Shown here in pieces: positions 9,404-28,444 of a stretch of 35,783 nucleotides of DNA (within the stretch, counting starts at the first letter, position 1; each line of letters begins with the position of its first letter). The position numbers were made by a program, and so were the translations under genes. This DNA comes from a virus. The DNA is taken from UHGV virus genome UHGV-0117379. One strand, 5' to 3'. Under the pieces are notes generated by a model, which was given only the letters and a program-made list of their open reading frames with translations, searched no databases and was not told the origin of the DNA.

Positions 9404-9622
9404 ATGTCAAGTATCGCCGCATTGAAGCTGGGTAATCCAGTTGAACGTTTGGCACGGGTTCTGAAAGAGAACCAGGACAAGCTCAATCTGAGTAAAGATG
9501 GTTTTGTGTCCGTAGATTTGTCCAACGAAGAAGCTATGAAAGCCATCCGAGATCAGATGGATAAGCTTGAAGGCATCAAAACGAGCACTGTTAAAGCAAA
9601 ATATTATTACAGAACCCGATAA
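9404..9622 (+). CDS. Hypothetical soluble 72-aa protein; first gene of a coupled two-gene cargo operon
   Basis: ATG at 9404 follows AAGGAGGGG. Its stop TAA (9620..9622) overlaps the ATG of the next gene (ATAATGG). Confidence 0.65.
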   Translation: MSSIAALKLGNPVERLARVLKENQDKLNLSKDGFVSVDLSNEEAMKAIRDQMDKLEGIKTSTVKAKYYYRTR

Positions 9623-10464
9623 TGGCAACATTACTTTTAGCAGTGATTTTGGTTAGTGGTTTTATATATGTAAACCTATCACTTTCAACACGTTATAGAT
9701 ATAAGCGTTCCAATGGCTGGGACGCTTATTTTTTTGTGGCTGCATGGGGAATTGTCTTTTTCCTCGCTGGCGGCTTCCTTACCTTCGCTCTTAACATCAG
9801 CGGTGGGTTTCGCTGGTTTTCTAATGCGCTGAATCTGACTCCAGACAGCTTTAACGGGATGTTATCCACCACAACCGATAAACCGCAGCGCATCAATGAA
9901 ATTAAGCAAATCGCGTGGGTTGTGATTTCAATAGTTCTCGCGGCGCTGTTCGGTTGGCTAAACAAACGCCGTACTTCAAAAGGGGATCGCCGTTGGGATG
10001 CACTGGCAAAGGCAGTGGGAAACAATGCTTTTGAATCGCTGCTCATGGAAGCATCAGCTCGCCAGTTTCCTATCATTGCTACACTTTCATCACGCAAAAT
10101 CTATGTAGGGCTGGTGACTTGCCCTGCGTTGGAAAATGGATTGTCGGAACACCTTGAAATTCTCCCCTTGCTGAGCGGATATCGTGATAAAGACGACCTA
10201 ACGATAAATATCACGACAAACTATCATCAGCACTATCTTGATAGCGGTGTTATCAATGGGATGTCGCGCCTGAATATCCAGGATTTCCGTGTGCTTCTCC
10301 CTAAAGATGAAGTTGAAACCATCTCGTTTTTTGATACTGAAACGTATAACAAATTTAAAGAAAACGAAGCGCGTGACCGGAAAGACTGCCGCAAGTTGGG
10401 TGGTAAAAAGCCATCCGCACGCAGGAGAAAGACTGCTGGCGACGCAGAGCAGGGTAGTGCATGA
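9622..10464 (+). CDS. Hypothetical inner-membrane protein (280 aa; 3 N-terminal TM helices, cytoplasmic C-terminal domain and basic tail)
   Basis: Hydrophobic segments at about aa 2-21, 35-57 and 97-113. The C-terminal part of about 160 aa has no recognised motif. Followed by an intrinsic terminator. Occupies the tin/old cargo position. Confidence 0.7.
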   Translation: MATLLLAVILVSGFIYVNLSLSTRYRYKRSNGWDAYFFVAAWGIVFFLAGGFLTFALNISGGFRWFSNALNLTPDSFNGMLSTTTDKPQRINEIKQIAWVVISIVLAALFGWLNKRRTSKGDRRWDALAKAVGNNAFESLLMEASARQFPIIATLSSRKIYVGLVTCPALENGLSEHLEILPLLSGYRDKDDLTINITTNYHQHYLDSGVINGMSRLNIQDFRVLLPKDEVETISFFDTETYNKFKENEARDRKDCRKLGGKKPSARRRKTAGDAEQGSA

Positions 10465-10512
10465 CTATGCTGCATGAATTTGCATGATCGTTTGAGGATC
10501 GTTTTAGCTCCG

Positions 10513-10537
10513 GCCCGCCAGTTCAGGCGGGCTTTTT
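10513..10537 (+). terminator. Rho-independent terminator (GCCCGCC-AGTTCA-GGCGGGC-TTTTT)
   Basis: Perfect 7-bp GC stem, 6-nt loop and T5 run, 49 nt after the stop at 10464. Confidence 0.8.
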
Positions 10538-10581
10538 CATATCTCATGCAGGTGCATGAAAACCACTACACAAAGCGGGCA

Positions 10582-10600
10582 GGCGTGGCGGGGATACGAG
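10582..10600. other. cos cohesive-end site (GGCGTGGCGGGGATACGAG)
   Basis: The first 13 nt are identical to the remembered 186 cohesive end (GGCGTGGCGGGGAAAGCAT) and near-identical to P2 (GGCGAGGCGGGGAAAGCAC). The following CGCGCGCT also resembles the P2 left end (..TGCGCGCTGA). Confidence 0.6.
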
Positions 10601-10608
10601 CGCGCGCT

Positions 10609-10637
10609 CATTACTTTTATAATTCTAGGGTTATAAT
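10609..10637 (+). promoter_or_regulatory. Candidate promoter of the KAP NTPase gene (two TATAAT hexamers at 10618..10623 and 10632..10637)
   Basis: Two consensus -10 hexamers lie 29-48 nt upstream of the ATG at 10666. AGGAG SD at 10654..10658. The -35 elements are weak. Confidence 0.4.
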
Positions 10638-10665
10638 ACAGGGCTATCTTTCTAGGAGAAAACAC

Positions 10666-12318
10666 ATGTCCTTAGAGTTTATCAAAGAACAGTTGTCAGA
10701 TTTTATCTCATCTACAGAACCAGAAGTAATGGCTATACAGGGTGAATGGGGAATTGGTAAAACCTATACTTGGAATACGTTCCTAAAAGATAATAAAGAT
10801 AAGGTTGCATTTAATAGATATAGTTATGTCTCTCTTTTTGGTATAAATTCACTAGATTCTTTAAAGTATTCTATTTTTGAGAATGCAATTACAAAGGAAT
10901 ATATTGGAAATAAACCTGATTTGGAGACAGCAACAACAAACGCAAGTGGACTTTTTGAATCGTTTTCTCGAAAAGCCGCAGGTTTGTTAAAAGAAGCTCC
11001 TGTTGTAAAAAACTTCTCTACGACACTTGAAGCAATGTCATTTCTGACCGTTTCTAAAATGATTGTAGTAATAGATGACTTAGAAAGGCGTGGCAAAAAC
11101 TTAGATGTTAAAGATGTTTTAGGGCTAGTATCTCTATTAAAGGAGCAGAAGGATTGTAAGGTGGTTCTATTGCTTAACAATGGCACAGCTAGTATGGAGG
11201 ATTATTCTACTTATAAAGAAAAGGTCATTGATAGAGATATCACTTACAATCCAACACCAGAAGAATGCGCAGATATAGCCTATAAAGGTGATTTTCATGT
11301 TTATAACTTGTTAAGTAAATATTCCATTTCTTTAGGTATCAAGAATATTCGAATCTTAAAAAAGATAGAACGTTTTTTCGTGTCCTTAACACCAAATATT
11401 ATAGGTGATGTTGAGACAATTTCAAATGAAGTTGCGCATTCATTAACTCTGTATTGTTGGAGCCATTACGGATTTTCTCCAGAGGGAGATGTGCCATCAC
11501 TAGAATATATTAGGGGAGTGAGGAATATATATACTTATAATGACAAGGAAGAAGGCCATGAGAAAGTCTGGCTTAATACCTTGCTTAAATATGGATATAG
11601 AAAAACGAATGATCTTGATGAGGTTCTTATTGATATGGTTAGATATGGCTATCTTGATAAGAGCAGTTTCCAAAGACAAATAAGCCTAAGGAATGAGGAG
11701 ATTACGCGTGATAATAAACGAGGTTCCTTATCTGAGGCATGGCAGTTCTTTCATAATTCATTTGATGACAATCAAAATCAGGTTGTTGACAAGCTATATC
11801 AAGCGGTGGTTGATGGGATGAAGTATGTGACTCCAAGTGATTTAGATAATGTTGTCGGACTATATAGGGATTTCGGAGAGAATGCTAAGGCGAGTGAATT
11901 GATTGAACAGTTTATTAATTATGGTAACGATGCTCTAAAGGAATATGTTCAATCTATTTATGTGAATGTTCATCCCGTAAGAGATGCTGAGTTGTTGTCA
12001 AAAATTCAAGCCTATTCTAATATTATAAATATTGATGGTTCAATATATGATGTTCTTAAGAAATTATCAGGTCAGAATGGTTGGTCTGATAGACATGAGG
12101 AAATATTGGATGCTGCTTCAGTAGATGACTACTATCAATTATTTAAAAATGTCATTCTTGATGGTGGTGATTCAATAATAGCTACGGCGCTTAAATTCGG
12201 AAATTATAGTAATGGTTCTGATAGAATGAATCGTATAGGGAAAAAGGCAAGGGATGCCTTGATAAGAATTGGAGATGAATCGGCGATTAATAAAATACGT
12301 GTAAGGCGATTTTTGTGA
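10666..12318 (+). CDS. KAP-family P-loop NTPase (550 aa, no inserted TM helices)
   Basis: Walker A GEWGIGKT (10741..10764), Walker B IVVIDDLER (11062..11088) and a downstream NIRILKKIERFF motif fit KAP NTPase signatures (GxWGxGKS/T; hhhhDDLDR; PRxIKRFxN). Strongly AT-rich (20/60 GC in 11101..11160). The start is taken downstream of the terminator and cos, which lie inside the longer ORF 10474..12318. Confidence 0.8.
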   Translation: MSLEFIKEQLSDFISSTEPEVMAIQGEWGIGKTYTWNTFLKDNKDKVAFNRYSYVSLFGINSLDSLKYSIFENAITKEYIGNKPDLETATTNASGLFESFSRKAAGLLKEAPVVKNFSTTLEAMSFLTVSKMIVVIDDLERRGKNLDVKDVLGLVSLLKEQKDCKVVLLLNNGTASMEDYSTYKEKVIDRDITYNPTPEECADIAYKGDFHVYNLLSKYSISLGIKNIRILKKIERFFVSLTPNIIGDVETISNEVAHSLTLYCWSHYGFSPEGDVPSLEYIRGVRNIYTYNDKEEGHEKVWLNTLLKYGYRKTNDLDEVLIDMVRYGYLDKSSFQRQISLRNEEITRDNKRGSLSEAWQFFHNSFDDNQNQVVDKLYQAVVDGMKYVTPSDLDNVVGLYRDFGENAKASELIEQFINYGNDALKEYVQSIYVNVHPVRDAELLSKIQAYSNIINIDGSIYDVLKKLSGQNGWSDRHEEILDAASVDDYYQLFKNVILDGGDSIIATALKFGNYSNGSDRMNRIGKKARDALIRIGDESAINKIRVRRFL

Positions 12319-19881: not shown

Positions 19882-20275
19882 AGCAGTGCCTTATGTCCGC
19901 AATAACCCGGACAAACTGCATCTGTTTGTGGATAACGGTTCGCTGGTTGCCACGGGGGCCAGCTCCATGTCATGGGAGTACCGCTATACCCTGAACGTGG
20001 TGATAGAGGATTTCAGCGGCGACCAAAATTTGCTGATGGCCCCGGTTTTACTGTGGCTGCGGGATAACCAGCCCGATGCCATCAATAACCCGGCGTTACG
20101 GGAAAAGCTATTCACCTTTGAGGTGGATATTCTGCGCAACGATGTCTGTGATATCAGCCTTAACCTGCAACTGACGGAACGTGTGCTGGTCAGCACTAAC
20201 GGCAGTGTGTCGAGCGTTGAAGCTATAGCGGAACCTGATGAACCTGAAGAAATGTGGACGGTGAAACGTGGCTGA
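19844..20275 (+). CDS. R: Tail completion protein gpR
   Basis: GTG at 19844 follows AGGAG. The N-terminus NKPQSLRHAINKAV...NPDKLHLFVDNGS matches remembered P2 gpR (LKPDSLRRALTDAV...NPDMLRIFVDNGS). Confidence 0.85.
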   Translation: MNKPQSLRHAINKAVPYVRNNPDKLHLFVDNGSLVATGASSMSWEYRYTLNVVIEDFSGDQNLLMAPVLLWLRDNQPDAINNPALREKLFTFEVDILRNDVCDISLNLQLTERVLVSTNGSVSSVEAIAEPDEPEEMWTVKRG

Positions 20276-20732
20276 ATTGCAGAAAGTGGACGACTGGCTG
20301 AGTGCCTTGCTGGCGAATCTGGAACCAGCCGCCAGAAGCCGCATGATGCGCCAGCTGGCGCAGGAACTGCGCCGGACACAGCAGCAGAATATCAGGATGC
20401 AACGCAATCCTGATGGCAGCAGCTATGAACCGAGGCGAGTAACAGCACGCAGTAAAAAAGGCCGCATCAAACGGCAGATGTTTACAAAACTTCGCACCAC
20501 AAAATACCTGAAAACCGCCGCCAGCGCGGATTCTGCCAGCGTACAGTTTGAAGGTAAGGTGCAGCGCATCGCCCGCGTTCACCTTTACGGCCTGCGTGAT
20601 CGCGTCAGTCGAAAAGGACCGGAGGTCCGTTATGCAGAGCGTCGTTTGTTAGGCATTGCTGAAAAAGAACAAAGTTTTATATTTTACACATTAATCAGTT
20701 GGTTACAGGAAAAGGGAGGGTTGCATAAGTGA
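20268..20732 (+). CDS. S: Tail completion protein gpS (its 3' end lies in AT-rich island DNA)
   Basis: GTG start overlaps the R stop. 154 aa in the P2 S position. The last ~25 codons (from about 20655) are AT-rich. Confidence 0.85.
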   Translation: MAELQKVDDWLSALLANLEPAARSRMMRQLAQELRRTQQQNIRMQRNPDGSSYEPRRVTARSKKGRIKRQMFTKLRTTKYLKTAASADSASVQFEGKVQRIARVHLYGLRDRVSRKGPEVRYAERRLLGIAEKEQSFIFYTLISWLQEKGGLHK

Positions 20733-20782
20733 GTTTATTTTACTTCAATGAAAATATAAAATCTGCTATATATAAAAACATT

Positions 20783-20791
20783 TGTTATAAT
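20783..20791 (+). promoter_or_regulatory. Extended -10 promoter element TGTTATAAT upstream of the island NTPase gene
   Basis: TGn plus a consensus TATAAT (20786..20791), 28 nt upstream of the ATG at 20820. AAGGA SD at 20806..20810. Confidence 0.5.
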
Positions 20792-20819
20792 GATATGATT
20801 TTCTTAAGGATAGGATGTT

Positions 20820-22331
20820 ATGCGCCCCAAAATTGGTGATTTTGAATTTGGTGAGGTTTATGGAGAGAATGAGGTATTATTTCTCGATAATTACTCGAAA
20901 TATTTTTATGATATAAATAATTCATTAAGTAAACTTGATAGAAAAAATAAAATGCTCGTAATTGGCAGGAAGGGGACGGGTAAGACATTGCTTGTTAATG
21001 TCTACTGTAACGCCAAGCGAAAAAATAATTATATTGCAGTTGTGGAATCATTAAAAGATTTTGTTTTTCATGAACTTACTCACTTTCAGGGGCAGGATGT
21101 GTCTTCCACAAAATATGTACCAATTTTCAAGTGGATGATATTGGTCAATCTTGCTAAGAATATTGTAAGTAATAAAAAAGGATTTAGTGAGGATAAAATA
21201 GTTCATTTGGAAAGTTTTTTACGTTCTTTTGGCCATGTCGCGGGCGAGTTAAGGCCTGAGCAAACAGTTGAAATAACTAGGGAGTACCAAGCGTCGGGTG
21301 AGGTTGGTATCGGATTTAGATTCCCAGTATTACGTGGTGAAGCCAAAGCAAAAGATGGTGAGGTCGAGAAAACAAAAGAAACAAAAAAGAATTATTTGGA
21401 ATGTATGGAATCTTTGCAGTGTTTTATTGTTGACATGCTAAAAGAGAGTAATAAAAAAATATATGTATTTTATGATGAGTTAGATGATAAGTTTGATGCA
21501 ACAGTTGAATATAAAAATGCAATGATAAGTTTTTTAAATGCTGTTGTGTCAATTAATAAAACTCTAATGCAAAATAAAATAGATGCTAAAATTGGTGCAG
21601 TTATTCGTCATGATATAATAAATACTTTTTCATCGCCGAATATTAATAAAATCATTGAAGATAACTCTGTTACACTTGATTGGTGTTCTGCTGGAGAACG
21701 AGCAAGTGATTCTGAGATTTTTGATATGATTGCTTTTAAGATCAAAAACTCCACTGATTATTATAATGATTTAAATGGTTCTAATTTGTTCGGGAAAATT
21801 TTCACTGAGAGAGTTGCAGGTGAGCATAGCTCTATTTATATTTTACATAGAACTCTAGGTCGCCCAAGAGATGCCGTTAGGATGCTAACTTATATTCAAG
21901 ATGAATATGGAGAAAATACTGAAAGATTTGAAAGTTCCATGTTTACAAAGATTTCTAAAAAATACTCATCTTATCTTTTACGTGAAATTAGATCTGAGCT
22001 TGCGGGACATTTAAGTGATTCAGAAATAGATGACAGTTTTTCTCTTTTACGTTCAGTAAAAAAAAGAGGTTTCACTCCACATTTAATCAAGGAAAAATTT
22101 GAAGAATTGAAGTTAGGAGATGGTACATTAACGCTTAATAAAATACTGAGTTGTTTATTTAAAGTCGGTGCTATCGGGAATGTACTCAGGAGATCTAAAA
22201 CAGATGGCGGAGATGTTTATTTGTGGTCATTTAATGATGAAGATTTAGAAATGGACCCAACGTTGAATTTTGAAATACACTGTGGTTTGTGGGATGCACT
22301 AGGAATTATCAAGCCTAAACTTAGGCAATAA
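20820..22331 (+). CDS. 503-aa P-loop NTPase of unassigned family (Walker A, long charged insert, Walker B, RPRD arginine motif, uncharacterised C-terminal domain)
   Basis: Walker A GRKGTGKT (20964..20987). Walker B IYVFYDELDD (21459..21488). RTLGRPRDAVRML (21849..21887) resembles sensor/arginine motifs of AAA+/KAP-like NTPases. Extremely AT-rich (14/60 GC in 21481..21540, versus 37/60 in 20341..20400). Confidence 0.8.
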   Translation: MRPKIGDFEFGEVYGENEVLFLDNYSKYFYDINNSLSKLDRKNKMLVIGRKGTGKTLLVNVYCNAKRKNNYIAVVESLKDFVFHELTHFQGQDVSSTKYVPIFKWMILVNLAKNIVSNKKGFSEDKIVHLESFLRSFGHVAGELRPEQTVEITREYQASGEVGIGFRFPVLRGEAKAKDGEVEKTKETKKNYLECMESLQCFIVDMLKESNKKIYVFYDELDDKFDATVEYKNAMISFLNAVVSINKTLMQNKIDAKIGAVIRHDIINTFSSPNINKIIEDNSVTLDWCSAGERASDSEIFDMIAFKIKNSTDYYNDLNGSNLFGKIFTERVAGEHSSIYILHRTLGRPRDAVRMLTYIQDEYGENTERFESSMFTKISKKYSSYLLREIRSELAGHLSDSEIDDSFSLLRSVKKRGFTPHLIKEKFEELKLGDGTLTLNKILSCLFKVGAIGNVLRRSKTDGGDVYLWSFNDEDLEMDPTLNFEIHCGLWDALGIIKPKLRQ

Positions 22332-22332
22332 T

Positions 22333-22365
22333 AAAAACGCCCTTTAATAGGGCGTTTTTATTTAA
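22333..22365 (+). terminator. Rho-independent terminator (AAAAACGCCC-TTTAATA-GGGCGTTTTT)
   Basis: Perfect 10-bp stem directly after the stop at 22331, followed by a T-rich run. Confidence 0.85.
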
Positions 22366-22393
22366 AGTTGTCATTCTTTCTTTAAATTATCAT

Positions 22394-22411
22394 TGTGCCA
22401 AATCTCTTACA
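22394..22411. promoter_or_regulatory. Candidate Ogr/B box TGT-N12-ACA of late promoter PV
   Basis: TGTGCCAAATCTCTTACA, between the island terminator and V. The dyad centre is only ~55 bp from the V ATG (versus ~86-88 bp at the O and FI promoters), so either the spacing or the V start is atypical. Confidence 0.4.
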
Positions 22412-22457
22412 ATTCTAAATAGATGAATTAGTCTTTGTTCTGTTTGATAATTTGGAA

Positions 22458-23036
22458 ATGAATACACAACTGACAGAAATCATGCGCCTTATCACCAACC
22501 TGATCCGCACTGGTGTAGTCACCGAAGTGGACAGGGAAAACTGGCTTTGCCGGGTGAAAACAGGCGACTTAGAAACCAACTGGATCAGCTGGCTGACCCT
22601 GCGTGCCGGGAATGCCCGGACATGGTGGCGACCATCGGAAGGTGAGCAGGTGGTGCTGCTGAGTCTGGGCGGCAATCTGGAGACCGCCTTTGCGCTGCCC
22701 GCTGTCTATTCGAATCAGTTCGCACCACCGTCGACGTCGGCGGACGCCTGCGTGACAGAACATCCTGACGGTGGCTGGTTTGAATACGAACCCGCCACCG
22801 GGCGCTGGTATGTCAGGGGCATCAAATCCATGGTTATTGAGGCTGCCGACAATATCACCCTGAAAACCAGTGAGTTTGTGCTGGAGGCTGACCGCACGCG
22901 TATTAATAGTGAAGTAGTGATCAATGGCGGCGTTACCCAGGGCGGCGGTGCGATGAGTTCTAACGGAATTGTGGTTGATGCACATCAGCATACTGGCGTC
23001 CTGAAAGGCGGCGACACAACCGGAGGCCCGGTATGA
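22458..23036 (+). CDS. V: Baseplate spike/assembly protein gpV
   Basis: MNT...IRTG...CRV.TG....W..WL..RAG..RTWW.PS.GEQV......G.L.TAF.LP..YS matches remembered P2 gpV. ATG at 22458, within ORF 22452..23036. Confidence 0.88.
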   Translation: MNTQLTEIMRLITNLIRTGVVTEVDRENWLCRVKTGDLETNWISWLTLRAGNARTWWRPSEGEQVVLLSLGGNLETAFALPAVYSNQFAPPSTSADACVTEHPDGGWFEYEPATGRWYVRGIKSMVIEAADNITLKTSEFVLEADRTRINSEVVINGGVTQGGGAMSSNGIVVDAHQHTGVLKGGDTTGGPV

Positions 23037-24885: not shown

Positions 24886-26435
24886 GCACAAAATTTTATA
24901 CCCTGCTGACGGATATTGGCGCGGCGAAACTTGCCAGCGCCGCCGCGCTCGGTGTGCCTTTAAAAATTACCCATATGGCGGTCGGCGATGGCGGCGGAAC
25001 ATTACCAACGCCGGACGCAAAGCAGACAGCACTGGTAAATGAGAAACGCCGGGCTGCGCTGAATATGCTCTATATCGACCCGCAGAACAGCAGCCAGATT
25101 ATTGCTGAACAGGTGATCCCTGAAAACGAGGGCGGTTGGTGGATACGTGAAGTGGGCCTGTTTGATGAGTCCGGGGCATTGATTGCCGTGGGCAACTGCC
25201 CGGAAAGCTATAAGCCGCAACTGGCTGAAGGCAGCGGGCGTACCCAGACCGTGCGTATGGTGTTGATTACCAGCAGCACGGACAATATCACCCTGAAAAT
25301 CGACCCTGCCGTAGTGCTGGCAACCCGCAAGTATGTGGATGATAAGGTACTGGAGCTGAAGGTGTACGCGGATGATCAGATGGCAAAACATCTTGCCGCA
25401 CCGGACCCGCATTCACAGTATGCACAGAAAGAAAGTCCTACGTTTACCGGGACACCCAAAGCGCCAACGCCAGCGGCGGGGAATAACACCACGCAGGTTG
25501 CGACCACCGCGTTTGTTCAGGAGGCACTGACGGCTCTTATTAATGGTGCGCCAGCCACGCTGGACACGCTGAAAGAAATAGCCGTAGCCATTAACAATGA
25601 TCCGAAATTCAGTACCACCATTAACAATGCGCTGGCACTGAAAGCGCCGCTGTCGAGTCCGGCACTCACCGGAACGCCAACAGCCCCCACGGCGGCGCAG
25701 TCGGTCAACAATACACAGATTGCCACCACGGCTTTTGTGAAATCGGCGATTGCGGCAATGGTGGGTTCTGCACCTGCGGCACTGGATACACTGAACGAAC
25801 TGGCGGCGGCGCTGGGGAATGACCCGAACTTTGCCACGACAATGCTTAATGCACTGGCAGGTAAACAACCGCTGGACAATACGCTGACTAATTTGAGTGG
25901 AAAGGATGTTGCTGGTCTTCTCGCATACCTTGGTTTGGGAGAAGGCTCTGCATTACCTGTTGGTGTCCCTGTTCCGTGGCCTTTAGCAACTCCGCCAACA
26001 GGCTGGTTGAAATGCAACGGTGCGCCATTTATCGCCTCCCAATATCCGAAGCTTGCTCTCGCTTACCCCGGTCTTTTGCTGCCAGACCTGCGCGGTGAAT
26101 TTATTCGTGGATGGGATGATGGGCGAGGGGTTGATCCAGGGCGTTCGATAGGGTCTAGCCAGGGATGGTCTCCAGGATCGCACGTCCACGGCTTGGAAAT
26201 TTGGACATCGGCTAGCGGCAGCATCCCAACTAGTACAACTGTACCATCGCAGAACGGTAGGGAGTTAGGGCCAGCAGCGACAGCAGGCGACGGCGGCGTT
26301 ATCCGATCACTTGGCGGCAGCGGCGGGACAAACAACAACTCTGCTACTTCTGTGACTACGCAGAGCCCCACCTTTGGAAACCAAGAAGGTTACCCGCGCA
26401 ACGTCGCATTTAACTATATCGTGAGGGCAGCCTGA
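24882..26435 (+). CDS. H: Tail fibre protein gpH (constant N-terminal ~354 aa; the currently fused variable C-terminus has a tail-collar-type domain)
   Basis: The N-terminus resembles P2 gpH (F.T..T..GAAKLA.A...G......MAVGDGGG). Two 74-aa tandem fibre repeats (about 25434..25655 and 25656..25877). The C-terminus PVPWP...GWL.CNG......YP.L......LPDLRGEFIRGWDDGRGVD.GR is tail-collar-like. Confidence 0.9.
   Translation: MSTKFYTLLTDIGAAKLASAAALGVPLKITHMAVGDGGGTLPTPDAKQTALVNEKRRAALNMLYIDPQNSSQIIAEQVIPENEGGWWIREVGLFDESGALIAVGNCPESYKPQLAEGSGRTQTVRMVLITSSTDNITLKIDPAVVLATRKYVDDKVLELKVYADDQMAKHLAAPDPHSQYAQKESPTFTGTPKAPTPAAGNNTTQVATTAFVQEALTALINGAPATLDTLKEIAVAINNDPKFSTTINNALALKAPLSSPALTGTPTAPTAAQSVNNTQIATTAFVKSAIAAMVGSAPAALDTLNELAAALGNDPNFATTMLNALAGKQPLDNTLTNLSGKDVAGLLAYLGLGEGSALPVGVPVPWPLATPPTGWLKCNGAPFIASQYPKLALAYPGLLLPDLRGEFIRGWDDGRGVDPGRSIGSSQGWSPGSHVHGLEIWTSASGSIPTSTTVPSQNGRELGPAATAGDGGVIRSLGGSGGTNNNSATSVTTQSPTFGNQEGYPRNVAFNYIVRAA
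25918..25943. promoter_or_regulatory. 26-bp hix/gix-like invertase crossover site (left), inside H
   Basis: TTCTCGCATACC-TT-GGTTTGGGAGAA. The inner half-site is a perfect inverted copy of 27797..27808. The central TT is complementary to the AA of the right site. Confidence 0.75.
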
Positions 26436-27037
26436 TGAATAAAGCCGTATTAAATAGCGAACTCATTACTACAAAGGCAGGAAACATTACCGTTTATAAT
26501 TTTGATGCTGAGACGAAGGAATATCTTTCCACATCAACCGAATACCTTGCTGTGGGTGTCGGTATTCCGGCGTATTCATGCTTAGATGCACCAGGTACAC
26601 ATAAAGCCGGTTATGCAATCTGCCGCTCTGCAGATTTTAACTCATGGGAATATGTGCCAGACCATCGCGGTGAAATCATCTATAGCACCGAAACAGGAGA
26701 ATCGAAAGAAATCACATCTCTGGGTGATTACCCTGAAAATACAACCACTATCGCCCCGTTAACGCCATATGATAAATGGGATGGTGAGAAATGGGTGACG
26801 GATACTGAGGCACAGCATAGCGCCGCAGTAGAAGCGGCAGAAGCACAGCGCCAGTCACTGATTGATGCAGCAATGTCTTCCATCAGTCTGATTCAACTGA
26901 AATTACAGGCCGGACGGAAGCTGACGCAGGCAGAAACAACCCGACTTAACGCTGTGCTGGATTATATTGACGCGGTGACGGCAACAGATACCAGCACCGC
27001 GCCTGATGTCATCTGGCCTGAACTGCCGGAGGCGTAG
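26435..27037 (+). CDS. G: Tail fibre assembly chaperone (gpG/Tfa family), currently expressed orientation
   Basis: ATGA overlap with the H stop. The C-terminus (..WPELPEA) and central coiled region are typical of Tfa proteins. Confidence 0.85.
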   Translation: MNKAVLNSELITTKAGNITVYNFDAETKEYLSTSTEYLAVGVGIPAYSCLDAPGTHKAGYAICRSADFNSWEYVPDHRGEIIYSTETGESKEITSLGDYPENTTTIAPLTPYDKWDGEKWVTDTEAQHSAAVEAAEAQRQSLIDAAMSSISLIQLKLQAGRKLTQAETTRLNAVLDYIDAVTATDTSTAPDVIWPELPEA

Positions 27038-27449
27038 GCCATTCAATATCTGGCGCACCGGAAGTATCGACCAGTTCCAGTGCGTCCAGATAATCCAGCC
27101 ACAAATTATATTGCACCAGTTCCTCACCTTTCAGGCGACCAATCGCCGCTTTACCAGGCCATTGCTTACTGTTTATGTATTCGTTGACCTGATTAATCAA
27201 TTGCTGCTTTTTCAGTTCGGCTGCGGCAATTTGTTCCTCATGAGTTGGCGGTGGAATATCAATCCATGCAGGCATTCCGTCGATGACACCTCTGTATTTT
27301 CCTTCTGGTGCTTCCTTCATAAATTCGGCAGCAACAGTGTCGTCAATTTCGATTCCATCATCGGGCCATTCGCCGGATTCCTGATAAGCGATTTTAAGCT
27401 CCACAGGGAAAAACGCATTTTTATCGGCACTGAAAATATATTTCTGCAT
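27009..27449 (-). CDS. Alternative tail fibre assembly chaperone (Tfa family), silent orientation
   Basis: 146 aa, convergent with G and overlapping it by 29 nt. The MQKYIFSADKNAFFP... N-terminus and ..IEWPTPP C-terminus are typical of the Mu U / P1 U / Tfa family. Confidence 0.85.
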   Translation of the reverse strand: MQKYIFSADKNAFFPVELKIAYQESGEWPDDGIEIDDTVAAEFMKEAPEGKYRGVIDGMPAWIDIPPPTHEEQIAAAELKKQQLINQVNEYINSKQWPGKAAIGRLKGEELVQYNLWLDYLDALELVDTSGAPDIEWPTPPAVQAR

Positions 27450-27451
27450 TT

Positions 27452-27796
27452 CTACCGTCCTATCGAAATATAACTGAATCTGTATTGCTGTGAGATATCA
27501 CTGGTTGCCACACGCCACGCTGAATTACTGATATGTTCAAAATTTACAGACAAAACCTGCGGGGCAGGAATCGACGGGTCTGACTGAACGGCATCAGACA
27601 TAACACTGACTGAAACCATCGGCTGATTAGGGAATGGTATAGGGAAGTGTCCACTGATAAAGCGGGTCGTGTTTCCTGAAAAAGTGCCAAACTGAACAAT
27701 ATATCCACCTGGTAGCCTGAACCATCCCGAACCAGAAGCGAATGCTCCCATATCCGGTATCTGATTATCTCCTGTGCCCACATCCCTTTTCGCCGC
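27452..27796 (-). CDS. Promoterless alternative tail-fibre C-terminal cassette (about 115 codons), fused in frame to H after inversion
   Basis: The reading frame continues across the crossover site (..GLGE|AAKRDVGTGDNQIPDMGAF...GWFRLPGGYIVQFG), like the variable parts of Mu S/S' and P1 S. The apparent start at 27850 has no SD and lies outside the crossover site. Confidence 0.75.
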   Translation of the reverse strand, partial: AAKRDVGTGDNQIPDMGAFASGSGWFRLPGGYIVQFGTFSGNTTRFISGHFPIPFPNQPMVSVSVMSDAVQSDPSIPAPQVLSVNFEHISNSAWRVATSDISQQYRFSYISIGR

Positions 27797-27822
27797 TTCT
27801 CCCAAACCAACGTTTAAGAAAA
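27797..27822. promoter_or_regulatory. 26-bp hix/gix-like invertase crossover site (right)
   Basis: TTCTCCCAAACC-AA-CGTTTAAGAAAA. Compare remembered hixL, TTCTTGAAAACCAAGGTTTTTGATAA. Confidence 0.75.
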
Positions 27823-27877
27823 TGCAGAGGTAACAGCTAACTGGCATCATCTCCGGTTTTTATTCAGGGGGATGATC

Positions 27878-28444
27878 ATGCTTATTGGCTATGTACGCGT
27901 GTCAACAAATGACCAGAACACCGATTTGCAACGTAATGCACTGAACTGCGCGGGATGTGAGCGGATTTTTGAGGACAAAATCAGTGGCACTAAGTCCGAC
28001 AGACCGGGGCTGAAAAAACTACTCAGGACACTATCGGCAGGAGACACGCTGGTTGTCTGGAAGCTGGACAGGTTGGGGCGCAGTATGCGGCATCTTGTTA
28101 CGCTGATAGAAGAGTTGCGCCAGCGTGGTGTGAATTTCAGAAGCCTGACTGACAGTATTGATACCAGTACCCCAATGGGCCGTTTCTTTTTTCATGTCAT
28201 GGGTGCCCTAGCTGAAATGGAACGCGAACTGATAGTTGAACGTACCAGGGCGGGGCTGGCTGCAGCTCGTGATAAAGGCAGAGTAGGTGGACGCCGTCCT
28301 AAGTTGACCACCGAACAGTGGGCACAGATTGGACGCTTACTCGAGGCCGGAGAATCAAGACAGCGTATTGCACTGATTTTTGATGTGGGTGTTTCCACAA
28401 TTTATAGAAAATTTCCGGCAAATAAGAGTAATGAATCCCCCTGA
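27878..28444 (+). CDS. Serine DNA invertase (Hin/Gin/Cin/Pin family)
   Basis: MLIGYVRVSTNDQNTDLQRNAL...DTLVVWKLDRLGRSM.HL......L..RG.NF.SLTDSIDTS.PMGRFFFHVMGALAEMERELI.ERT.AGLAAAR.KGR.GGR is nearly colinear with remembered Gin. Catalytic Ser in YVRVST. C-terminal HTH. An alternative ATG lies at 27872. Confidence 0.92.
   Translation: MLIGYVRVSTNDQNTDLQRNALNCAGCERIFEDKISGTKSDRPGLKKLLRTLSAGDTLVVWKLDRLGRSMRHLVTLIEELRQRGVNFRSLTDSIDTSTPMGRFFFHVMGALAEMERELIVERTRAGLAAARDKGRVGGRRPKLTTEQWAQIGRLLEAGESRQRIALIFDVGVSTIYRKFPANKSNESP

Follow-up and report, generated by a model that had tools for sequence, protein, structure and literature searches.

A Sll1717-family ATPase gene as cargo in the variable S/V slot of a P2-like prophage: a candidate single-gene anti-phage defence

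The S/V island and its ATPase

The virus genome UHGV-0117379, a stretch of 35,783 nt that we call the window and on which all positions are counted, is a complete P2-like prophage. Between its tail genes S and V lies an AT-rich island (20650..22451) with a gene for a P-loop ATPase of 503 amino acids (aa), located at 20820..22331 on the + strand (RefSeq WP_001247533.1). This protein, the ATPase in what follows, belongs to the Sll1717 family and is of the AAA+, ORC/Cdc6-STAND-like type. An earlier description made from the letters alone (the sequence-only reading) had presented the island as a self-contained unit with a candidate undescribed phage-defence gene.

The guanine-cytosine (GC) content of the island is 31.6%, compared to 56.7% and 57.6% in the 2-kb flanks, and the two spot counts given previously (37 of 60 at 20341..20400 and 14 of 60 at 21481..21540) were exact. 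At third codon positions the GC fraction (GC3) is 0.25 in the ATPase gene versus 0.59 in S codons 1-128 and 0.62 in V. The island does hold a single sizeable open reading frame (ORF), that of the ATPase; no other ORF on either strand exceeds 56 aa, and a scan of the island with Rfam gave nothing near any gathering score. The low-GC tract begins within S, as had been noted: homology to other P2-like S genes is lost at about 20650 (S codon ~129), and homology to other P2-like loci returns only at the V start codon, 22458. Over the S-ATPase-V stretch that we compared (20733..22451), the window and the E. coli ATCC 8739 chromosome are 99.9% identical; the RefSeq coordinates of that chromosome agree with the gene layout, and its protein is the same WP_001247533.1.

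The neighbouring genes were identified with Pfam. Gene S (20268..20732, +; 154 aa; RefSeq WP_000829124.1), for tail completion and virion morphogenesis, forms the left flank (PF05069, Phage_tail_S, E=1.5e-39) and gene R matches PF06891. The right flank is gene V (22458..23036, +), the baseplate spike gene, whose product begins with MNT and matches PF04717 and the Apex domain PF18946; RefSeq WP_001096010.1 uses the same ATG.

The sequence-only reading had assigned the gene its own promoter, ribosome-binding site and terminator. The Shine-Dalgarno sequence AAGGATAGGA (20806..20815, +), read from the sequence 4 nt ahead of the ATG, is present, and GGA(T/G)GGA is kept in relatives. The proposed extended -10, TGTTATAAT, is also present (20783..20791, +) as a predicted element, but it is not conserved in the relatives with 88% and 83% aa identity, which have CATAGT or TATAAA and no TG. 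The best-conserved candidate promoter upstream of the gene is a putative extended -10-like block, TCTGCTATA (20762..20770, +), where four lineages (aa identities of 100, 88, 83 and 69%) retain TCTG(C/T)TATA amid diverging sequence.

The intrinsic terminator (22330..22365, +) turned out to be even stronger than the 10-bp stem described before. It has a perfect 14-bp stem (arms 22330..22343 and 22349..22362), a 5-nt loop and a T-run, with a folding energy (dG) of -24.1 kcal/mol and z=-8.64 versus shuffles. Only the loop changes in the 88% and 83% relatives, and the 69% relative has a different GC hairpin at this position. The terminator would stop the ATPase transcript and also any transcript reading through from the late operon whose last gene is S. 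A generic promoter and terminator scan overlooked both the terminator and the proposed promoter, owing to the weak -35 and to a T-run that belongs to the stem. No terminator was found between S and the ATPase gene; therefore, late read-through into the gene would be expected too. Expression in the lysogen is plausible.

The protein had been called unassigned, and this did not hold. It is a full-length member of the curated NCBIfam family NF047389 (P-loop ATPase, Sll1717 family), with 271.8 bits against a curated cut-off of 75 bits (E=1.2e-80, residues 10-494 on model positions 1-454 of 454), and RefSeq names the identical protein as Sll1717 family. A distant member of the family, DS-41 (‘AAA2’, WP_033812887.1, NCBIfam NF053860), is already a validated defence: it was reported as a DefensePredictor single-gene anti-phage system and, as a single cloned gene, protected E. 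coli MG1655 from phage (Table S7, PMC13092281). The ATPase also matches PHROG 13260, a group of unknown function (E=2e-71).

Queried with the protein itself and with its family profile, Pfam, PADLOC v2 and PDB sequences yielded sub-threshold P-loop matches only, and these searches therefore gave no family assignment. The best PADLOC-DB v2.0.0 match was PDC-M28C (E=0.0065, 13.4 bits), with no significant system match, and across 39 family members PADLOC gave only weak matches to PDC-M28C, mad8 and IetA. We found no literature on Sll1717, WP_001247533.1, its locus tag or PHROG 13260. An exhaustive search with the Sll1717 profile collected 6,514 clusters at 50% identity, of which 1,493 had E<=1e-30; the best 150 of the 6,514 were all stand-alone proteins of ~475-530 aa with no fusions.

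The motifs were located where they had been claimed (aa 49-56, 173-190, 214-223 and 346-356), and the invariance of residues was scored in an alignment of the 39 family members. Walker A, GRKGTGKT (aa 49-56; 20964..20987, +), has G49, K51, G52, G54 and K55 invariant; Walker B, IYVFYDELDD (aa 214-223; 21459..21488, +), has D219 and D222 invariant. Between strands beta2 and beta3, the AlphaFold2 (AF2) secondary structure places a helical insert of ~110 aa (aa ~83-191; 21066..21392, +), variable and gapped in the family alignment. The stretch rich in lysine and glutamate, GEAKAKDGEVEKTKETKK (aa 173-190), falls within a disordered loop of the AF2 model (aa 158-189) with a predicted local distance difference test score (pLDDT) <50. 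At the sensor-1 position, the tip of beta4 (strand E256-263 in the model), R263-H-D265 (21606..21614, +) has invariant R263 and D265 and may, by analogy, correspond to the STAND sensor-1 arginine. W288 is invariant as well. The lid domain carries LGRPRDAVRML, a GxP or sensor-2-like motif (aa 346-356; 21855..21887, +) with P349, R350 and D351 invariant.

The C-terminal region (aa ~371-503; 21930..22328, +) consists, in the AF2 secondary structure, of a long helix and a predicted winged helix (H400-413, H420-429, H439-448, E452-456 and E466-468), and it finishes with a conserved FEIHxGLW end. Here S383 and E389 are invariant, while H487, G489 and L490 are nearly so. The winged helix (aa 400-468) is near-neutral, with an isoelectric point (pI) of 8.9 in this protein and a family median of 8.05, which neither favours nor excludes DNA binding. 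Profile and model searches found no nuclease, protease, TIR, Sir2 or transmembrane module, in agreement with the sequence-only reading. In the predicted architecture, an N-terminal helix precedes a P-loop core that contains the long helical insert; the lid with its GxP/arginine motif follows, and a winged helix makes up the C-terminal part. No enzymatic effector is fused to these modules.

The S/V junction as a variable cargo slot

In P2, gene S is followed by a terminator, orf30 (minus strand), the pV activator site and V, and the V transcript begins at the first base of V. The orf30 region has long been counted among the three variable regions of P2-like phages, together with the TO-region (old/tin) and the Z-region (fun) (PMC3091744). 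A 2026 survey in Nucleic Acids Research placed defence systems “within the tail genes” and “downstream of GpL” of P2, with S/V unnamed (PMC13586616). Rousset et al. described the A-Q hotspot only, and Egorov et al. the old/tin, Z/fun and tail-CI hotspots. Therefore, the suggestion that S/V is a third cargo locus, not described before, stands only in part: the orf30 site was already a known variable region (PMC3091744) and defence in the tail genes had been reported (PMC13586616), but in the literature covered the S/V junction is not named as a defence hotspot.

Alignment of S-V junctions, proposed earlier as a check, was carried out for 77 evaluable closest S relatives in IMG/VR and for a second sample of one genome per species plus P2. 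We found that the slot varies and holds known defence types. In IMG/VR, 50 of the 77 junctions were empty (66-78 bp) and 27 were occupied, with nine classes of insert size (1723/1724 and 1900/1902 bp each counted as one). The species-level sample had 14 empty and 11 occupied junctions out of 25. The ATPase was the cargo of five IMG/VR loci, PARIS AriA+AriB of another five, and an ApeA-like 584-aa protein of two; further cargos were a PDC-S15/FRG protein, a 304-aa unknown and its split relative, a 271-aa HNH-like protein, a 231-aa membrane protein and a 481-aa unknown. The species sample added other membrane proteins, DUF5677+DUF2971, an EEP-nuclease pair and a DNA methyltransferase. In enterobacterial prophages all cargos were low in GC (0.31-0.39); the methyltransferase of a Pseudoduganella prophage had 0.64, like its GC-rich host. 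The ATPase gene was the only + strand cargo in the surveyed slots, all others being on the minus strand.

The S/V slot thus carries bona fide defence systems. The island of the window lies between S and V, is low in GC and varies in presence among close relatives, which are the features of cargo in this slot.

Several of the other cargos deserve a description of their own. A complete PARIS (AriA 419 aa, AriB 311 aa, minus strand) sits in the S/V slot of five P2-like contigs (L008-L012); PARIS was first described from the P4 hotspot. The ApeA-like 584-aa cargo occurs in L065 and L079 (PADLOC ApeA, E=1e-13), and the copy in L079 is frameshifted into ORFs of 195 and 372 aa, a rare case of decaying cargo in the slot. 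Recurrent cargos include the 304-aa protein (L006, L007, L013, L021 and L031), a 271-aa protein with a weak HNH_5 match (L014, L015, L017 and L047), proteins of 481-487 aa (L033 and L100), a membrane protein of 231-252 aa (L020, L094, L099 and L101) and membrane proteins of 185 and 268 aa (L095-L097). The recurrent 304-, 271- and 481-487-aa proteins and the membrane proteins, all low in GC and on the minus strand, could be assigned with neither PADLOC nor Pfam and are candidate defence or exclusion genes in their turn. P2 Orf30 (261 aa) seems to be another of the membrane-protein cargos in the slot.

The borders of the cassettes were compared across cargo types. Every cassette type encodes its own diverged C-terminus of S (the last ~20-26 codons), always ending in WL(x)n and a stop codon. 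In the window this part is the low-GC 3' end of S (20650..20732, +; the last ~26 codons), the left recombination border, which is marked by the alignment break against empty and other-cargo loci, by the cassette's own S C-terminus and by GC3 (0.35 versus 0.59 in the rest of S). At the other end, a TGT-N12-ACA dyad stands 46 nt upstream of the V ATG in every cassette type and in the empty sites, with diverged surroundings. In the window it occupies 22394..22411 (+) and is presumed to be the Ogr-type activator site of the late promoter pV; its centre is 55.5 bp before the V start, the same as for the annotated P2 pV activator site.

As read from these alignments, the cassette runs from S codon ~129 to the V start codon; it brings along an S C-terminus of its own, a single cargo gene, a terminator and a separate copy of pV. 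The exchange unit takes in the end of S and the pV promoter, because each cassette has its own S C-terminus and its own dyad; therefore, homologous recombination in S and V would leave the expression of the tail genes intact. The strong terminator after the ATPase gene substitutes for the terminator that follows S in P2.

At the limits of the exchange unit (20650..20732 and 22366..22457; loci L006-L065) the bounding elements are alike in function and unlike in sequence. A -10-like GATAAT of pV (22446..22458) ends 7 nt upstream of the V ATG. The annotated V transcription start of P2, the first base of the V coding sequence, implies a V mRNA that is leaderless or nearly so in these phages. Both borders of the ATPase cassette carry a 13-nt inverted repeat, AAAAAGAACAAAG / CTTTGTTCTGTTT (20662..20674 and 22433..22445; 12 of 13 positions complementary), which was equalled by only 2 of 200 shuffles and may be due to chance. 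We rejected it as a general recombination site, since nothing comparable was seen in eight other cassette types; nor were general border repeats indicating site-specific insertion found across the cassette types compared.

Two other regions of the prophage were also noted. The A-Q gap, the cos-proximal hotspot (9622..12318), is a second low-GC island (0.32-0.37) with a 280-aa ORF, for which no family match was found, and a 614-aa KAP-family P-loop nucleoside triphosphatase (NTPase). The KAP NTPase (Pfam PF07693, E=6e-7; PADLOC candidate system PDC-S49, E=6e-28) stands where old and tin are classically located and is a candidate for defence cargo. Between the tail-fibre gene H and the sheath gene FI (26435..28444) there are a Caudo_TAP tail-fibre assembly gene, a 155-aa ORF and a Hin/Gin-type serine invertase (Resolvase + HTH_7, E=7e-53). 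Such a gene set points to an invertible switch of tail-fibre host range at the Z/fun position rather than to a defence gene. A Kluyvera relative (L118) has the same H-FI arrangement with the TAP genes inverted.

Distribution and probable role of the ATPase

The ATPase gene was found in 9 of 5,426 complete E. coli genomes, and 999 carry this type of S. In line with the sequence-only reading, such rarity (9 of 999) shows that the gene is no part of the phage core. The same cassette was seen, at 98.5% identity, in a Klebsiella phage. The identity of homologues is 88% in enterobacteria, ~50% in Vibrio and Shewanella, ~31% in Bacillus and as low as ~20% in cyanobacteria. Other P2-like prophages, among them those of Citrobacter and Kluyvera, hold copies with 88, 83, 73, 70 and 69% protein identity in this slot, with unchanged orientation.

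Other homologues are single genes in other cargo sites. For example, the Providencia homologue is in a prophage, adjoining the integrase; the Shewanella homologue is in a lambdoid prophage, upstream of the lysis genes; the Vibrio homologue is in a region with filamentous-phage genes; and the Bacillus homologue is in an islet with Schlafen-like and DNA2-like helicases. No conserved neighbour gene was seen in 13 independent contexts from Proteobacteria and Bacillus. In Enterobacter sp. Bisph1 (L115, 5391..13773), an 82%-identical ATPase stands in an integrase island at smpB, directly beside DarT and NADAR (DarG); thus the same gene is common to a chromosomal defence island and P2-like phages. 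This island also holds a phospholipase-like/DUF8093 protein with an ankyrin-repeat neighbour.

In our judgement the island is one allele of a swappable cargo cassette in the S/V slot, with a cargo that probably serves as a single-gene anti-phage defence expressed from the prophage. By analogy with its distant relative DS-41, an anti-phage role is also the function that we consider reasonably probable for the ATPase. Since DS-41 protects E. coli, the ATPase gene is a credible candidate for defence and not an unknown kind of system. The defence reading proposed earlier therefore survives in a reduced form: the cargo is a single gene, horizontally acquired and self-contained, and its slot is variable; the family, the hotspot neighbours and the contexts of homologues make an anti-phage role the best reading, but the system is not an undescribed one.

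A possible mode of action can be outlined. At rest the ATPase would be an inactive monomer. An infection cue, either a phage protein or the DNA of phage replication or packaging, might free it to bind ATP and to oligomerise, as the structural relatives Cdc6/ORC, TnsC, MuB and STAND proteins would lead one to expect. The oligomer itself could then be the effector, by coating or clamping DNA or by sequestering a factor essential to the phage, and would so block replication or late development of the phage.

A number of observations weigh against a defence role. PADLOC v2 gave no significant match, and neither the ATPase nor the Sll1717 family name is present in the text-form supplementary tables of DefensePredictor. 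The ATPase is not a DS-41 equivalog: with the equivalog model NF053860 it scored 26 bits (E=4e-6, residues 12-258 only), below the cut-off of 370, while DS-41 itself scored 414. BLASTP of the ATPase versus DS-41 was not significant and hhalign gave a probability of 36% (E=3.7e-4), a profile-profile match of weak significance; because of this the link between the two rests on the shared NCBIfam model, the order of motifs and the fold. In the 70-73% relatives the predicted promoter shows poor conservation. With a median pI of ~8.0-8.7, the winged helix and the insert are mildly basic at most, which lends the idea of DNA binding no direct support. The association with the hotspot is no more than suggestive, because S/V cargo includes membrane proteins and a methyltransferase. 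Finally, as the only + strand cargo, with no terminator after S, the ATPase would also be made late in the lytic cycle, which is compatible with a role, other than defence, that benefits the phage.

Among the alternatives, the one that fares best is a defence sensor that requires an unlinked partner. Such a sensor would recognise a phage protein and recruit or activate an effector (nuclease, protease or membrane protein) encoded by the host or the prophage, comparable to BrxC and RdrA in multi-protein systems. We hold this to be unlikely, because the 13 independent contexts share no conserved neighbour gene, the family is uniformly stand-alone at ~500 aa, and DS-41 protected MG1655 as a lone cloned gene, where a conserved host partner may nevertheless have taken part.

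Less probable still is an accessory factor of benefit to the phage and made from the late transcript, for instance a DNA-bound ATPase switch for replication, partition, packaging or lysogeny control, or one directed against P4-type satellites. The co-orientation with S and the missing terminator, unlike every other S/V cargo, would fit such a factor, as would a lineage kept in the slot in one orientation from 100% to 69% identity and fold relatives that are replication initiators and transposition target selectors. Conversely, the gene is present in only ~1% of the E. coli prophages with this type of S and the slot is mostly empty, and therefore the ATPase is dispensable. Close homologues also reside outside P2-like phages, in unrelated prophages and in the DarTG island; moreover, the family includes a validated defence, and the low GC and the slot-mates are typical of defence cargo. 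We thus consider this role quite improbable.

That the gene is a mere passenger, neutral or in decay, and left over in an inactive state from horizontal acquisition, seems very improbable: it is rare and, low-GC DNA in E. coli being subject to H-NS silencing, the AT-rich island would face this silencing too, but the ORF is intact, 39 diverse members share all catalytic motifs as invariant, undisrupted copies at 98.5-99.9% identity are carried by nine E. coli genomes and the Klebsiella phage, conservation over the full length extends down to 20% identity and 6,514 clusters, and the ApeA-like cargo frameshifted in L079 provides the contrast.

Returning to the defence cassette that we favour, what it would mean depends on whether the ATPase clade protects. 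If so, the role of DS-41 would extend to a large and uniform family (6,514 clusters in Proteobacteria, Firmicutes and cyanobacteria) that is invisible to PADLOC v2. A second, highly diverged member would become available for comparing the mechanism of an immune ATPase with no recognisable effector, and the S/V (orf30) junction, loaded in about a third of relatives and with cassette borders now defined to the nucleotide, would become a site for defence discovery. If not, the ATPase gene would be an ordinary prophage moron.

A bolder proposal, which we put forward as tentative and on balance doubtful, is that the Sll1717 family (the ATPase clade and DS-41) is a minimal effector-less immune switch, a bare module of nucleotide-binding core, lid and winged helix with an ATP-driven oligomer as the weapon. 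The weapon might, for instance, take the form of a filament on phage DNA like those of TnsC and MuB, or of a cage that encloses a protein for phage replication or packaging. If true, this would be a principle distinct from the sensor-plus-enzyme logic of Avs, PARIS and CBASS, and it could model how STAND/NLR receptors were ancestrally built. As a separate point, the S/V slot would be an exchange cassette complete in itself, with its own S C-terminus and pV promoter.

Comparison with known systems

Like the ATPase, DS-41 carries a multi-helix insert between beta2 and beta3. Walker B of the ATPase aligns with DKLDE of DS-41, and LGRPRDAVRML with SPRE of the DS-41 clade. On the other hand, DS-41 matches only positions 1-353 of the 454-position Sll1717 model and differs from the ATPase in its C-terminal third, and it lacks the R-x-D at the tip of beta4. 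DS-41 has been validated experimentally, while the ATPase clade is known from sequence and models.

With respect to AAA+ initiators, the modelled ATPase has the alpha/beta core and the helical lid, and proteins of the Cdc6/Orc1 type are its structurally closest relatives. Sequence identity to archaeal SSO1545 (2fna), PABY2304 (2qen) and Cdc6/Orc1 is 12-17%, and the Pfam models ORC-CDC6-like, ATPase_2 and AAA_16 stayed below their gathering scores (PF24389 15.2 vs 27, PF13191 16.7 vs 32.6 and PF01637 11.7 vs 33.2). The ATPase differs from the archaeal AAA+ and Cdc6 proteins in its own beta2-beta3 insert of ~110 aa, in being cargo of a mobile element and in having no link to a replication origin. 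TnsC and MuB belong to a different family; no transposase partner genes are near the ATPase, and its DNA binding is hypothetical.

The STAND, Avs and NLR proteins have a C-terminal repeat sensor as well as an effector at the N-terminus, neither of which the ATPase has, with NTPase, lid and winged helix filling all 503 aa. Here too all the Pfam models, NACHT included, remained below gathering (nSTAND3 15.1 vs 27.2, nSTAND6 14.3 vs 27.7 and NB-ARC 13 vs 23.5). A 2026 survey of STAND proteins left out clades with no long sensors (PMC13581612). The kinship with the KAP NTPase of the A-Q island that the sequence-only reading had seen in the motif order was not borne out: hhalign aligned the P-loop only (27 columns, probability 0.3%), and Pfam PF07693 (KAP) had no match in the ATPase.

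With P2 orf30 the ATPase gene shares the S/V position, the low GC, the non-essential character and the horizontal acquisition. The two differ in that P2 Orf30 is an unrelated, predicted membrane protein encoded on the opposite strand, and the terminator in P2 stands directly after S. The ATPase is a new member, from a divergent clade, of a family in which one defence has been validated, and it is placed in a variable slot that was already known.

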